A DNA stretch of 64,000 nt, taken from NCBI GenBank assembly GCA_964016885.1, contig OZ024743.1, positions 342,054,001 through 342,118,000 on the forward strand, given 5' to 3'. This stretch comes from Eledone cirrhosa. Taxonomy: Eukaryota. Below are positions 10,896-54,620 of the stretch, one piece after another. The number at the start of each line of letters is the position of its first letter. Position 1 is the first letter of the stretch. A program made the position numbers and the translations under genes. Below the pieces are notes generated by a model. It saw nothing but the letters and a program-made list of their open reading frames with translations, did not search any database and was not told the origin of the DNA.

Positions 10896-11340
10896 AATAT
10901 ATATGCAGTAAGAAACACAGTAAACCGTGTGTCTAATATTACAAGGGTTGAAAAACCACATTTGTTTGAAATATTTAACCAAGAAGCAGACAGAATGATA
11001 AAATGAAAATATATTATTATACAAACCGCCTCAATAACCATTATATCTCTCGGACAGATTATCCCTAATCTGTTTCGCCCTGAGTGTGTTTGTAACAGAT
11101 AATCCTTAGGCATCATCAGCGAGAGAATCTGATTAAATGCAACAAAGACTATGTACCAACGTTCACACAGAAAGATGGTTAAATATTTCAAACAAATGTG
11201 GTTTTTCAACCCTTGTAATATTAGACATACGGTTTACTGTATTTCTTACTGCATATATATTATTAATCGGCTCAGTATTTTATACTTGGAGCTTAATAGT
11301 TACAGGGTTTCAATTGGAGTTTTAACTCTAATTTTCATTT
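10896..11340. mobile_element. Non-coding hammerhead-bearing element with ~85-bp inverted repeat (10896-10981 / 11177-11260)
   Basis: Arms are reverse complements; ribozyme lies in the spacer; TA-rich flanks. Confidence 0.7.
11046..11126 (-). ncRNA. Type I hammerhead ribozyme
   Basis: TCTCTCG-CTGATGA-tGCC..GGC-GAAA-CAGATT(agggat)AATCTG-TC^-CGAGAGA: 7-bp stem I, long stem III, GUC site. Confidence 0.9.
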
Positions 11341-11359
11341 ATATATATATATATATATA

Positions 11360-12560
11360 CGTAGGAGGTGAGTTTTATTGTAGCAACAATAAAACAATGC
11401 AAATATCGGATAAGTAGCACTCCACAGTTTATAGGACTGGAGTATAAATAATATAAGATCAAAATATGGTTAAAAGAGTTTCAAGTATTTTATTATGCGC
11501 ATTTCAAAAACAAGTATCATCATGGGATGATATTTGCATTCTCATCAGATAAAATAGGGAAACATGATATGAAGCTTAAAAAACACTTGTGAGCAGTGAA
11601 GTTTTAAATCAACATATGAAAAATAAAGTAAGATGGATTTATGAAAATGGGAAAAAAAGGAGGGGCGTAGGAAATGGTAAGGAAGAGGAAGAAAGAAAAT
11701 AAAGGATGAAGTGGGAGGAGTATAGGAAGGAAGGATGAGAGAGGAGGAGAAATGAGTGATACAGAGAGAAAAAACATTGTTTCACAGAGAGAAATTAAAA
11801 AAACCATTGGAAGATAATAGATAATTTAAAAAGATTTTGAAATTAAAAGTTAATGAGGTTTATGGATGTTGATGTTTATGATTAAAGAAAAGGAATTAAG
11901 AATAGTATTAAAGGTTTATATATTGAAGGGTTTAATAATATGTGCGAAAAAAAAATTTATTAATATGTATTATTAGAATAAAAATATTAATGATATTAAG
12001 GATATATGTGAAAGAAGGAGAAGAATAAATGAATTATGAACTTAAAGGAATTAGTTAGGGTTTCAGTTTGTTTTTATGTATTGTAATATGTAAAAGTAAA
12101 TAAAAGGTTTAAAACGAGCGCGAAAGGAGAGAAGAAAAAAGAAAATTTAAGGAAGCCCCTTTTTTAAGTAAAAAGAAATTCAAACACTCATATATGAAAA
12201 AAACAACCTGAGCCCCCCCCCTTGTTTGAAGGACTTTGTAACGCGAACTGCGAAATTTATTATACTTATTGACCAACCAATCAAATTACTTCTCTAAAAA
12301 CCTGGCGTTTCGAGCCACTCTTTTCCATATAAAACAAGTAACATTCAAAGACCAACCAGATGTGAGAAAAACCACAGAACCTCCATCTCAACTCTACTTT
12401 TGAAAAGCAGAAGAACTGCGAAACCGGTAAAGGAACCAAATACATAGATATATTTTTTTTTAAATAAGACTCCAGTTGCATTTTCTATTTCATCTTTTTT
12501 TCTTTATACTTTCACTCGTCTAGGACACCTCGGTTATTTTTCATTTTGTAAAAAAAAACC
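11360..12560 (-). mobile_element. Degenerate Penelope-like 3' end / pseudo-LTR
   Basis: Purine-rich tract mirroring a PLE 3' UTR, ELRWR-like endonuclease remnant at 12281-12481, hammerhead near the 3' end. Confidence 0.55.
11486..11556 (-). ncRNA. Type I hammerhead ribozyme (short palindromic stem III)
   Basis: TATTTTAT-CTGATGA-extended stem II-GAAA-TGCGCA-TA^-ATAAAATA. Confidence 0.8.
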
Positions 12561-12774
12561 CACTTTCTGATATATATTGAATTATATATATATAATTATA
12601 TATATATATATATTAGAATTGGTGTTCTGAAATAGCAAATGCGAAACAGGGCTCTGTCGGCTTCGAAATGCTTTTAATTAAGCATACAGTGTATTGCAAA
12701 ATACACTATATATACATTCATATATATATATATAAATATATATATATATATATATATATATATATATATATATA

Positions 12775-13447
12775 TATGAAAGACGTAAAATAAGAAAATT
12801 AAAAAAATTAAAAATTAACTTACTTACTAAAATTTTCACTCCAACTAATTAGTTTCTGTAATGGGATAAAGATAGTTACGCAATGTAACCATCGAGAATT
12901 CATTACGTCATCAGGGGGTCTATTCTCAGCTAAGTCCCCAGACAATGCGCGGACACTAGGGACTCATATAAAAATAATAATTTGGTGGATGGAACAGCTA
13001 GCAGGGACTGAATTCCATAGCACTGAAAAAGTTCATTGTCTCTGGTCAAGTGGCAGATTCTAAAGATTCAATCACGTGACACTGAGGCTAGGCAGTAGGA
13101 GTGGGAGGGTATTATGACAAGAGCCTACTACCACTACGATGAATTAGCAGTGGATTTGGCAAGTTTGCTCAACAAATAAATAATTTGGAGTTAAATATAG
13201 AGAATTAGTATATTTACCAACATATGCGTAGAGATGTACACTAATGCTAGCAAATACATAAGTTATGTCATAGTACCTAGGTGGTTCTATGCAGGGGGAT
13301 GCAGAACAATTATATGAAAGACGTAAAATAAGAAAATTTTAAAAATTAAAAATTAACTTACTTACTAGGTACTATGACATAACTTATGTATTTGCTAGCA
13401 TTAGTGTACATCTGTACGCATGTGTTGGTAAATATACTAATTCTCTC
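12775..13447 (-). mobile_element. Non-coding hammerhead element: ~538-nt unit, partial direct repeat, then inversion
   Basis: 12778-12829 repeated at 13316-13367; 13198-13281 inverted at 13366-13447; (TA)n/(CT)n flanks. Confidence 0.75.
12838..12919 (-). ncRNA. Type I hammerhead ribozyme, slightly degenerate
   Basis: ACCCC-CTGATGA-cGTAATG..CATTACa-GAAA-CTAATTAG-TT^-GGAGT. Confidence 0.7.
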
Positions 13448-13590
13448 TCTCTCTCTCTCTCTCTCTCTCTATATATATATATATATATATATATATATAT
13501 ATATATATCCTAAGTTTTCATAGATATAAATTCCCTTTTCTTCTGAGTGTTGGCTTGTTCTGGCCGTTAATACTTCTTGTCTCTTTTCTT

Positions 13591-13631
13591 GCTCTGATGA
13601 GTCCCTATTAATGGGACGAAATACTATCAGC
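13591..13631 (+). ncRNA. Minimal type I hammerhead ribozyme
   Basis: GCT-CTGATGA-GTCCC(tattaat)GGGAC-GAAA-TACTA-TC^-AGC, followed by AATAAA; in a ~170-bp island between (TA)n tracts. Confidence 0.82.
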
Positions 13632-13697
13632 TAATAAAGACTTTTGATGTATTGAAGGCTTCTTTGTTTACTTTTTATAATATATATATATATATAT

Positions 13698-52260: not shown

Positions 52261-52361
52261 TACATATACATATATATATATACATATATACATATATATA
52301 TACACACACATATATATATATATATATATATAAATATATATATATATATATATTCACATAT

Positions 52362-53400
52362 CTAAGGCGGGTAAAATTCCCGAGATCCATGGACGAGTTC
52401 TCTCCAGCGGTCTCTGTCCCTCATTATCGCTGCCATGTCCTGCGTCTCCAACACACCAGTGTCTGTCCTTAGGGCATCAACATATGTTAACCTTGGTCTT
52501 CCTCTTCTAGTGTATCCATGTAGGGGATCCCAAAGGAGTACTGAGTGCAATGTCAACTCTGGATGTCGGTGAGCATGTCTAGCTAACCTCAGTCTCCTCT
52601 GTGTCACTTTTGAGCTGACTTTTGGGATGCTCCCATACAGCTCTGCGTCTTTCATCCTCAGTGTATACTGATTAATGTTCAGAGCCATCCTCAGCATCTT
52701 CGTGTAGCACCCATCCACCATCTGAGTGAGTTTTTTGGTCAGATGAAGATCTAACAGGCTTATGGAATCCCAAAAAGGATAGTGGACCTGATATCACTGC
52801 TCTACACCAACACCAAAGCCCAAGTCATTACACCTGATGGGATGACAGAGTTCTTTGAGATAGTGGCTGGAGTGCACCAGGGAGATACATTGGCTCCCTA
52901 CCTTTTTGTCATCGTAGTGGACTATTCTATGACCTTGCACTGGAGAAACACCAGGACTCTGGCTTTACTGTAGCACCGGCTCAGAGCAGGAGAGTTAGGG
53001 CGAAAAAGGTATCGGATGCTGAATTTGCCGACGACATAGTTTTGGTGACAAATACAGTGAAGGAGGCAGAGGATTTGATGCGGGAGGTTGAGACTGTGCC
53101 GATGAGTGTGGGGCTGATAATGAATGAAACTAAAACAAAATATCTGGTAGAGAATGTTGAGAAGCCAGAGGGGATCACTAATGTAGGCGGGAAGCCGCTG
53201 GAATTGGTTGAGGACTTCCTGTATTTGGGAGCAAAGATTGGGAATACGGAAGATGATGTGGTTGAGAGGAAGAGCAAGGTCTGGGCGGCGTGCCACAGTT
53301 TGAGATCGGTGTGGAAGTCAGACCTTCGTAGAGACCTGAAAATCCGCCTCTTCATTGCTGTAGTGGAGTCTGTGCTGCTGTATGGGTCTGAGACTTGGAT
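52362..53400. mobile_element. RTE LINE with 5' inversion (3' part on - 52362-52741; RT part on + 52750-53400)
   Basis: [32 protein letters not shown] on +; LTKKLTQMVDGCYTKMLRMAL..RGRPRLTY on -. Confidence 0.88.
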
Positions 53401-53620
53401 ATACACACACACACATATATATATATATATATATATATATATATATATATATATATATATATATATATATATATATATATATATATATATATATTTATAT
53501 ATATATATATATATATATATATATATATATATATATATATATATATATATATATATATATATATATATATATATGTGTGTGTGTGTGTATATCCAAGTCT
53601 CAGACCCATACAGCAGCACA
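53371..53620. repeat. Palindrome centred on (TA)n
   Basis: tgtgctgctgtatgggtctgagacttggatata(ca)n(ta)n(tg)n tatatccaagtctcagacccatacagcagcaca. Confidence 0.92.
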
Positions 53621-53635
53621 TATATATATATAGTG

Positions 53636-53900
53636 AAGGCACATAGCTTAGTGTGGTTAGAGCATTGGGCTTGCAATCGAAAGCTTGTGAGTTCAATTCT
53701 CGAACCGGGTGATGTGTTATTTCCATGAGCAAGACATTTTATTTCACGTTGCTCCAGTTTACTCGGCTGTAGAAATGAGATGAAGAGGTACCGGTCTGCC
53801 CGCCCAGCCAGTGGGATGGCGTTATCTTATGGCTAAAACAGCATGACGTGCTGTACAAGCCGCGCCGAATGGACGCCCGACAGACTGGTCGGTCAAGGTG
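53636..53900 (+). mobile_element. tRNA-derived SINE family B (CORE-like)
   Basis: TAGCTTAGTGTGG A-box, GAGTTCAATTC B-box, TGAGCAAGACATTTTATTTCAC..CTGTAGAAATG. Confidence 0.7.
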
Positions 53901-54139
53901 ATATATATATATATATATATATATATATATATAGAGAGAGAGAGAGAGAGAGAGGAGAGGTAGAATACTGGAAGGTATTATCCGTAGTGGTAGCGCACAG
54001 TGTCCATGGGACGAGTTTGGTAAAAGTAGTAACACAACAGTTAGTTCCCCAGTCCGAGCTGAAGATCCGATTAGGTGAAACAATTGTTCTCAGTATGGTG
54101 AACAAACTGTTGTGATACTACTTATATATATATACATTA

Positions 54140-54620
54140 GTTTTGCAACCCTTTTGATATGAAATCGTGTGTCGAAACAAATATTGTTATACTTGGGAAG
54201 GGTAATATTGCTATAATATTGCCAGAAATAATAACAGAACACCCTCACTGTTTGGTTTGGGTTGGTTTTCGCTTTTGTATCTTTTATATCTCAATAGTTA
54301 GTTTATTTGGCAATCAATGTTTATCATTGATTAACCAACGGTTAAAAATACAGATATAAATATATATATATATATATAGCCTATTAATTTTGGCGTAAAC
54401 TTTACAATGGGAGGAAACAAAAAGTACCACTGATGATGTGGCAGATGTGTGACGAAAGAACTTTGATATTTATATCTGTATTTTTTACCGTCGGACAATC
54501 AATGATAAACATTGATTGCCGAATAAATCAGCTATGGAGATATAAAAGATACAGAAGCGAAAACCAACCCAAACCAAACAGTGAGGGTGTTCTGTTATTA
54601 TTTCTGGCAATATTATAATA
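54140..54620. mobile_element. Inverted-repeat element related to the 14250-15770 hammerhead family
   Basis: 54213-54362 inverted at 54467-54617; CTGATGA..TGTGACGAAAGAACTTTGA at 54430-54467; attgttatacttgggaagggt end motif. Confidence 0.72.

Follow-up and report, generated by a model that had tools for sequence, protein, structure and literature searches.

Background

In animals, type I hammerhead ribozymes (HHRs) with a palindromic helix III are carried in the pseudo-long terminal repeats (pseudo-LTRs) of Penelope-like elements (PLEs), for which thousands of solo motifs from truncated elements as well as inverted pairs are on record (Cervera and De la Pena 2014, PMC4209133). Non-LTR retrozymes are head-to-tail units that lack open reading frames (ORFs), contain one type I HHR each, have a GC content below 45% and a self-paired circular fold, and coexist with PLEs (Cervera and De la Pena 2020, PMC7229834; Li et al., bioRxiv 10.64898/2026.07.22.740005). 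These features recur in a 64,000-nt stretch of Eledone cirrhosa (assembly GCA_964016885.1, contig OZ024743.1, positions 342,054,001 to 342,118,000, forward strand; hereafter the window) and in related copies elsewhere in this genome. For the window, about 19 HHR motifs in roughly 12 families had been listed from the letters alone (hereafter the original prediction); 13 families, designated by letters, were counted here. Unlike the published retrozymes, which are known as RNA circles, the units described below are known as DNA repeats and measure 440–560 bp, with one over 1.1 kb. The link between retrozymes and PLEs was drawn in those studies from co-occurrence and pseudo-LTR homology, whereas here it is drawn from an insertion signature and a cis hairpin pair that point to one clade.

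That clade is the Hydra clade (Craig et al. 2021, PMC8557442), with which part of the elements here share the RWK, DKT and CxCX5C motifs, a C-terminal GIY-YIG domain, the HHR, the (TA)n target, an optional tail and 5' inversions; an octopus Hydra family is contained in file S7 of that paper. The tails found here are longer (70–160 nt, compared with 30–40 nt there), and 3' untranslated regions (UTRs) reach up to 1.5 kb. In its accessible part, the paper describes neither leader hairpins nor Hydra-dependent non-autonomous elements. The biochemistry of PLE insertion has been described in vitro for PAc Poseidon (Frangieh et al. 2024, PMC11167929), where reverse transcriptase (RT) starts internally on uncut RNA at two tail-matching sites, both DNA strands are cut and extended, the tail is the stretch between the two RT starts, HHR cleavage is dispensable and a dimer is predicted. 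PAc Poseidon belongs to another clade and starts in an AC-rich stem-loop of the ORF, and no structure conserved across families is reported in the accessible text.

PLE hammerheads, retrozymes, the proposed retrozyme–PLE link, the Hydra clade, its tail and octopus PLEs are already in print. In a literature search, which left aside subscription papers, Repbase notes and preprint supplements, neither the hairpin pair nor retrozymes that depend on the Hydra clade were found described, and hammerheads are absent from the main text of a 2026 octopus repeat paper (PMC13282606). Our interpretation, which we hold to be rather probable, is that the window contains mixed PLE insertions in (TA)n, and that the Hydra-clade PLEs and the ORF-less families A, C, J and G share two bulged hairpins located beyond their insertion ends, which are likely bound by the RT-endonuclease and set the RT start.

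Insertion ends and the hairpin pair

For each family, a query returned 972–3988 first-look candidates, of which the best 40 were scored and 20–30 were taken with 1.5 kb flanks. End positions of K, H, J, A, C and L come from k-mer chaining and those of the other families from microsatellite onset, since alignment-based end calling was unreliable in TA-rich references. Nearly every family showed two preferred 3' ends that abut (TA)n downstream of the cut site, while F showed one. These ends lie at +36–40 (6/37) and +111–116 (29/37) in K, at +38–50 (15/56) and +198–203 (25/56) in H, at +156 (12/32) and +234–242 (18/32) in A, at +70 (24/64) and +180–186 (16/64) in C, and at +129–131 (22/39) and +233–239 (4/39) in J, where 13 further copies read through. 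TA microhomology is seen at the insertion ends. The stretch between the two ends is the PLE tail, which in the in vitro system lies between two RT start sites (PMC11167929). Outward-facing inverted pairs (n = 116) combined a long with a short end in 67 cases, two long ends in 2 and two short ends in 1, with 46 unclassified; among the 33 pairs of the ORF-less families A, C and J, 24 were long plus short and none was long plus long or short plus short. Since each end of a pair uses its own site, also in A, C and J, the retrozymes insert with the two-site signature of the autonomous elements.

A hairpin begins 2–9 nt beyond each insertion end. In read-through copies it takes the form RYUC, inner stem, loop, U-N bulge and GARY, often followed by AC. 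Hairpin 1 was found at one position in 31/38 copies of K, 33/53 of B, 31/57 of H, 16/33 of A and 17/40 of J, counts to be read with the fact that copies stopping at the short end cannot show it; it is also present in D, N, C, G, M and O, with no such recurrence in E, E2, I and F. Where an ORF is linked, carriers of hairpin 1 have Hydra motifs and non-carriers have CX2-5CXXC linkers. At least 14 further HHR flank clusters outside the defining set carry hairpin 1, which occurred in 16/250 shuffled windows. Hairpin 2 was seen in K, H, A, C, J and, in its one tandem, G, with a looser first pair and inner stem. Within families, stem positions are more conserved than the remaining tail, clearly so in C (5/616 versus 181/3634) and K and slightly so in A and B.

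Recurrence outside this genome was assessed in 78 loci of Hydra-like elements from marine metagenomes, which contained 70 sense HHRs, 54 of them with enough downstream sequence. A strict hairpin lay within 130 nt of the HHR in 34/54, compared with 35/1080 shuffles and 8/299 ORF windows. Counted over the 54 HHRs, two hairpins were found in 24, one in 18 and none in 12; positions cluster at +36–61 and +101–134, and in read-through leaders the second hairpin stands shortly before the ATG. For covariation, instances were anchored by the flanking letters only, that is, by sequence. The inner pair beside the bulge was Watson–Crick in 53/53 distinct instances (37 C-G, 16 U-A), against a mean of 30.7 and a maximum of 41 in 5000 permutations and 5/53 in a slid control; the second inner pair was Watson–Crick in 34/49 and the third in 22/33. 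By eye, the hairpin was recognised in three of six published Hydra consensus sequences, namely Hydra-1_Ajap (twice, before the ATG), Hydra-2_Ajap and Hydra-2_Amil, and was not clear in the other three. An RNA model built from 40 foreign instances and run on the window ranked the hairpin of K first, an orphan hairpin second (E 0.016) and that of G third.

Two other roles of the hairpins were weighed against these data. According to the first, the hairpins would serve translation, transcription start or packaging, and the ends would lie nearby only through (TA)n priming on adjoining AU-rich runs; the position before the ATG in foreign leaders and the TA microhomology at the ends agree with this. 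We nevertheless regard it as unlikely, as both hairpins are kept by the ORF-less A, C, J and G, the units hold many other AU-rich runs that are unused as ends, and the long-plus-short rule of the inverted pairs needs two distinct sites. According to the second, which we judge quite unlikely, the hairpin would not be an RNA signal but would work as DNA, marking the donor or the new cDNA for endonuclease recognition or for resolution. Earlier work cited in PMC11167929, in which recognition of plasmids by the endonuclease depended on the Drosophila virilis tail, and the small number of G-U/G-T pairs in the stems (0/53, 2/49 and 3/33) speak for it, whereas the hairpin lying 3' of an end is left out of the copy at that end and must therefore act on the template, the covarying pairs imply a single-stranded fold, and the hairpin is strand-specific.

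A separate tail sequence, unlike the Hydra hairpin, is shared by E and E2 (window 14959–15029, 15190–15230 and 54136–54206) and may hold the corresponding signal of their clade.

Autonomous and ORF-less families

Asking which families ever link to a PLE ORF splits the original set, which had been presented as non-autonomous elements lying nearly all in ORF-less islands; the lack of ORFs holds locally but fails genome-wide for 8/13 families. The (TA)n flanks, partial tandems and inversions described there were all borne out. Eight families (B, D, E, E2, F, H, I and K), to which 12 of the 19 belong, are the 3' pseudo-LTRs of autonomous PLEs, and their window copies are ordinary 5'-truncated or 5'-inverted PLEs. 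With most loci reaching only 1.5 kb from the HHR, a sense PLE ORF was found to end at an almost constant distance upstream of the cut site in 11/32 copies of K (mostly 1.2–1.35 kb away) and 16/55 of B (mostly 1.0–1.07 kb). A sense PLE ORF was likewise found upstream in 7/33 copies of D, 3/56 of H (1.5–1.6 kb, at the locus edge), 44/63 of E (mostly 241–255 nt), 7/34 of E2, 17/30 of I (mostly 408–453 nt) and 10/64 of F (mostly 0.6–0.8 kb), and in the additional families N (8/81) and O (4/46). One locus (L369) contains a full-length K element with two pseudo-LTRs 3.6 kb apart, and another (L360) a 768-aa frame of family D, 1.45 kb upstream of the HHR. The link of family M to an ORF is weak (ORF remnants upstream in 2/6 extended loci and an unrelated-looking ORF in a third), and M is probably a Hydra-clade 3' UTR. 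In L373, the F copy next to a family I ORF represents a nested insertion. At another locus (L250:1195-1450), a polypyrimidine-CAG stretch resembling an intron 3' splice site lies about 200 nt before the F motif; introns in PLE pseudo-LTRs are known. A 3' fragment of F devoid of a hammerhead is located at window 15036–15175 (+).

The remaining five families with 7 of the 19 motifs (A, C, J, L and G) are ORF-less and form seamless head-to-tail units of 0.44–1.2 kb, whereas no seamless short tandems were found in the sampled loci of the ORF-linked families or M. Only scattered neighbouring ORFs were seen (A 0/34, C 3/56, J 5/36, L 2/78, G 1/56). The unit measures 473 bp in A (one seamless spacing, one locus), 532–561 bp in C (12 spacings, one 6-mer array), 523–530 bp in J (9 spacings) and mostly 441–450 bp in L (17 spacings); G is represented by a single head-to-tail pair of 1170 bp (L636), is older and more diverged, and gave no PLE protein match over a body of at least 1.45 kb. 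In the A, C, J and L units the longest stop-free frame is 60–102 aa, and neither these units nor G were matched by the Hydra hidden Markov model (HMM). The A, C, J and L units are predicted to fold as self-paired circles (z −3.0 to −6.5, 30 shuffles). On this sequence anatomy, A, C, J and L are classified as non-LTR retrozymes and G as a probable one.

Families F, G, M and O had all appeared ORF-less at first, their first queries being biased to short or inverted copies; unbiased queries linked F and O to ORFs, M weakly, and G not. An origin as miniature inverted-repeat transposable elements or other DNA transposons was rejected, since the junctions of the inverted arms vary and their ends differ in length, one being short and the other long, instead of forming fixed terminal inverted repeats; the apparent terminal inverted repeats of A, G, O and E2 are PLE 5' inversions.

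That all families are decayed autonomous PLEs, with the ORF-less tandems being local pseudo-LTR duplications (minisatellites) that do not move in trans, is true in its first part for 8/13 families; local amplification is discussed by Li et al. (bioRxiv 10.64898/2026.07.22.740005), and sampling here was shallow. As an account of the whole set we consider it very unlikely, because A, C, J and L are dispersed over many contigs (1267–3265 first-look candidates), their copies are 95–99% (A, C, J) or about 88% (L) identical, their multimers lie between (TA)n runs and have PLE-type ends, and the shared upstream sequence is the unit alone.

A further ORF-less family, P, was encountered at L362:2387-5177 (−) and also in L071, L170, L255 and L323. 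It has 310-bp units with an HHR in each, including a 10-mer array, and is devoid of the strict hairpin; its HHR resembles that of L. It may be that both L and P rely on another PLE clade.

Clade assignment and candidate helper proteins

A CxCX5C linker was found in the ORFs upstream of all six of K, B, D, H, N and O; RWK and DKT were found in K and DKT in D, while B, H, N and O were assessed from ORFs that lack the 5' parts. As these are Hydra-clade motifs (PMC8557442), all six families are assigned by motif to that clade. The ORFs of E, E2, I and F have CX2-5CXXC linkers. No solved structure matched the family D protein.

Two proteins of the window had been named in the original prediction as possible mobilisers. 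The one encoded at 8845–9909 fits this role, being of the Hydra clade and 66% identical to the family K protein (BLASTP); Pfam gave nothing for 8845–10365, and the ORF was placed by BLASTP and the Hydra HMM. In the 3' region of this element lies the orphan Hydra-type hairpin (window 10338–10357, +), with no HHR upstream. The other protein, at 42251–44193, contains RT and GIY-YIG domains (Pfam) and gave only a marginal match in its C-terminal part. As it belongs to another clade, has its own HHR (44573) and comes from a family without the hairpin (0/36 copies), it is an improbable mobiliser of A, C, G or J.

Hammerhead motifs and controls

Motifs were searched with a lenient type I descriptor, which follows the order stem I, CUGANGA, optional extra base, stem II, GAAA, helix III, UH and stem I', with stem I open, and which tolerates a single change in the core, an additional base after A9 and mismatched stem positions. 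All 19 predicted motifs of the window fit this parse, with coordinates that agree within about 10 nt with its low end. The core is intact or family-fixed in 18/19, and the same number, 18/19, score at least 9; the motif at 19118 is degenerate (U4A in the window copy, score 7.6). Three further HHRs were found with C3 at 1387 (−), 23669 (−) and 54059 (+), whereas weak matches at 16887 and 40432 (scores 7.6–7.9) were taken as chance. A degenerate second G hammerhead is present in an inverted arm at 32253–32420 (−).

In the shuffling control suggested with the original prediction, the lenient descriptor gave 21 window matches scoring at least 9, against a mean of 0.10 and a maximum of 1 in 40 dinucleotide shuffles (500-nt blocks); at a score of at least 6, 24 matches compared with a mean of 1.05. 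The reversed and the complemented window gave no HHR matches. A strict descriptor with perfect pairing beside the core returned 2 window matches (shuffle mean 0.02), because many families are without a pair at 10.1-11.1. The Rfam check proposed at the same time did not recover the motifs: no HHR was among the 150 of 217 matches listed for the window, where only microsatellite-driven miRNA matches appeared, and none was found at gathering score in 11 loci. The window motifs are variant hammerheads. That they are chance matches in AT-rich repeats, to which these Rfam results and the monomer folds (no stabler than shuffles, z −1.6 to +0.5 for 7 HHRs) might lend colour, is practically negligible and is refuted at the sequence level by the shuffling control, 65 HHR clusters with differing stems around one core, and a perfectly palindromic helix III in 16/32 multi-copy clusters. 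Palindromic helix III and weak monomer folds would agree with cleavage as a dimer or with protein help, both on record for PLE hammerheads (PMC4209133; PMC11167929).

An extra base after A9, here in A, E, E2 and F, is shared with the published PLE hammerheads (PMC4209133). Unlike those, which have a conserved G-C at 10.1-11.1, 17/32 multi-copy clusters are without that pair (U-U in 11, C-A in 3, A-A in 2, A-G in 1), and families with fixed U4C or U4A exist here; U-U at this position is tolerated in hammerheads (PMC3088659). Family N (loci L445–L464) is young, with copies about 97% identical, and its U4A core is fixed in 70/81; this points either to tolerance of the variant or to loss of ribozyme activity in an element that still moves. 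No report of a fixed U4A hammerhead was found in the literature searched. U4C, as in H and M, is a known viroid variant. Core and 10.1-11.1 variants may already be listed, reportedly, by Lunse et al.

HHR density was 0.33/kb in the window. The flanks of the loci, a repeat-biased sample of 672 kb, gave 0.23/kb, and arbitrary stretches gave 4 HHRs in 40 kb. The window is therefore about threefold richer in HHRs than average, and not unique. The HHRs themselves are ordinary for PLE-rich animals; the rough figure of 0.1/kb (4 in 40 kb) would mean about 10^5 motifs in the 3.0-Gb genome.

Other features of the window

The features are collected in Table 1. A repeat of about 190 bp, which may be like a short interspersed element, is very frequent and often forms inverted pairs (1970–2163 and about 20 other places, e.g., 3659–4047, 16563–16739, 33610–34119, 54624–55045 and 56477–57023). 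An almost perfect inverted repeat of 177 bp (13693–13869), which follows immediately on a (TA)n run, resembles stem II and the 3' end of a flank HHR cluster and is perhaps an inversion-type insertion that lost its core. Broken RT fragments of the long interspersed element type (Pfam RVT_1, zf-RVT) lie at 27006–29814 (−), 52362–53400 and 57311–59896, with 58318–59896 duplicated in inverted orientation.

Table 1. Hammerheads, hairpins and PLE coding remnants located in the 64,000-nt window
Feature	Position	Strand	Remark
HHR, family M	1306..1390	−	not in original list
5'-truncated Hydra-clade PLE ORF	8845..9909	+	CxCX5C linker; no HHR found downstream
Insertion, family A	~10894-11340		short end on minus arm, long end on plus arm
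HHR, family A (ORF-less, 473-bp unit)	11046..11126	−	long helix III able to form in monomer
Hairpin 1, family A	11270..11292	+	in tail of inverted arm
Hairpin 1, family B	11419..11443	−	
HHR, family B	11486..11556	−	Hydra-clade PLE 3' UTR; ORF ~1.05 kb upstream in other copies
HHR, family C (ORF-less, arrays up to 6)	12838..12919	−	
Hairpin 1, family C	13284..13307	−	upstream part of unit
HHR, family D	13591..13631	+	Hydra-clade PLE 3' UTR
Three HHRs, family E	14400-14442; 15331-15373; 15565-15607	−; −; +	pseudo-LTR of non-Hydra PLE; no hairpin; ORF end ~243 nt before cut site in other copies
Degenerate HHR, family F	19118..19153	−	non-Hydra PLE 3' UTR; ORF remnants 0.6-0.8 kb upstream elsewhere
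HHR, family N	23624..23674	−	not in original list; Hydra-clade 3' UTR; core CAGAAGA, U4A, in 70/81 copies
Hairpin 1, family G	32217..32251	−	in tail of inverted arm
HHR, family G (ORF-less)	32523..32580	+	
Hairpin 1, family H	32775..32808	−	
HHR, family H	32853..32907	−	Hydra-clade PLE 3' UTR; core CCGAAGA, U4C, in 54/56 copies
Broken RT + GIY-YIG ORF, parent of family I	42251..44193	+	non-Hydra PLE; CX4CXXC linker
HHR, family I	44568..44606	+	~410 nt after the 42251-44193 ORF
Two HHRs, family J (ORF-less)	46797-46886; 47551-47626	−; +	partial tandem plus inverted arm
Hairpin 1, family J	47161..47191	−	
Three HHRs, family K	48521-48596; 49601-49678; 51308-51385	−; −; +	Hydra-clade PLE 3' UTR
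Two HHRs, family L (ORF-less, head-to-tail, 450 bp here)	48816..49308	+	only variant hairpins
Hairpin 1, family K	51418..51438	+	best window match of foreign-built model, E 1.2e-5
HHR, family O	54049..54098	+	not in original list; Hydra-clade 3' UTR, ORF ~0.3 kb upstream elsewhere; inverted tail 53958-54042
HHR, family E2	54422..54471	+	3' UTR of non-Hydra PLE related to E

Proposed mechanism

From the sequence patterns, the hairpin pair is likely a cis signal that positions reverse transcription and permits mobilisation in trans. A tandem locus would be transcribed, and the hammerhead, likely cutting as a dimer or with protein help, would give rise to unit RNAs, which may circularise. An uncut multimer or a religated circle would serve as template, because copies cross the cut site unbroken and end 20–240 nt downstream. 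The Hydra-clade protein would bind the hairpin, nick (TA)n DNA and prime at a distance of a few AU-rich bases 5' of the hairpin. Priming of the two DNA strands from different hairpins would then produce the observed inverted insertions with one short and one tailed end; as both arms carry the same HHR region, two template units would be needed, which could be provided by a multimer, by two rounds on a circle, or by two RNAs. Retrozymes that retain the hammerhead and both hairpins (A, C, J and G) could thus be copied in trans by Hydra-clade proteins. Put more generally, we lean slightly towards the view that Hydra-clade PLEs use the pair as twin initiation signals, one per DNA strand, and that animal retrozymes are parasites that keep exactly the pair and the hammerhead.

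Several observations weigh against this account. Family L has two end clusters but only variant hairpins, and the stems are not better kept than the rest of the tail in J (33/381 versus 92/1772) or H (23/574 versus 124/4145). Among the foreign HHRs, the strict motif is missing within 130 nt in 20/54, some of which end at the short site and some of which are variants; the fourth inner pair is not significant, and a looser anchor gives the first inner pair in 45/55. The foreign loci are related, several coming from like-named record series, so that counts are not independent and the permutation figures overstate independence. The foreign-trained model ranks only K, G and one orphan in the window and misses GUUC/ACUC variants. 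The in vitro element (PMC11167929) initiates inside its AC-rich ORF stem-loop and not before a hairpin. With blastn, the A, C, J and L units showed no likeness to the eight autonomous families tested; their parents may have escaped sampling or been lost. The tandems of A and G rest on one locus each, and, with the best 40 candidates scored per query, any of A, C, G, J and L may have an autonomous parent that is rare.

Significance

How PLEs choose their internal start sites is stated as open in the accessible text of Frangieh et al. (PMC11167929), and the mechanisms of retrozyme mobilisation "remain to be elucidated" (bioRxiv 10.64898/2026.07.22.740005). With a hairpin of 20–35 nt that has covarying pairs and lies 2–9 nt from both ends, in families with an ORF as well as in ORF-less ones, both questions become testable with one purified protein and short RNAs. 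For annotators, the hairpin is a marker by which orphan hammerhead repeats can be assigned to a PLE clade. If the proposed role is true, PLE reverse transcriptases would have in the hairpin a defined RNA element that they recognise, and the mobilisation of retrozymes could be approached directly through it.

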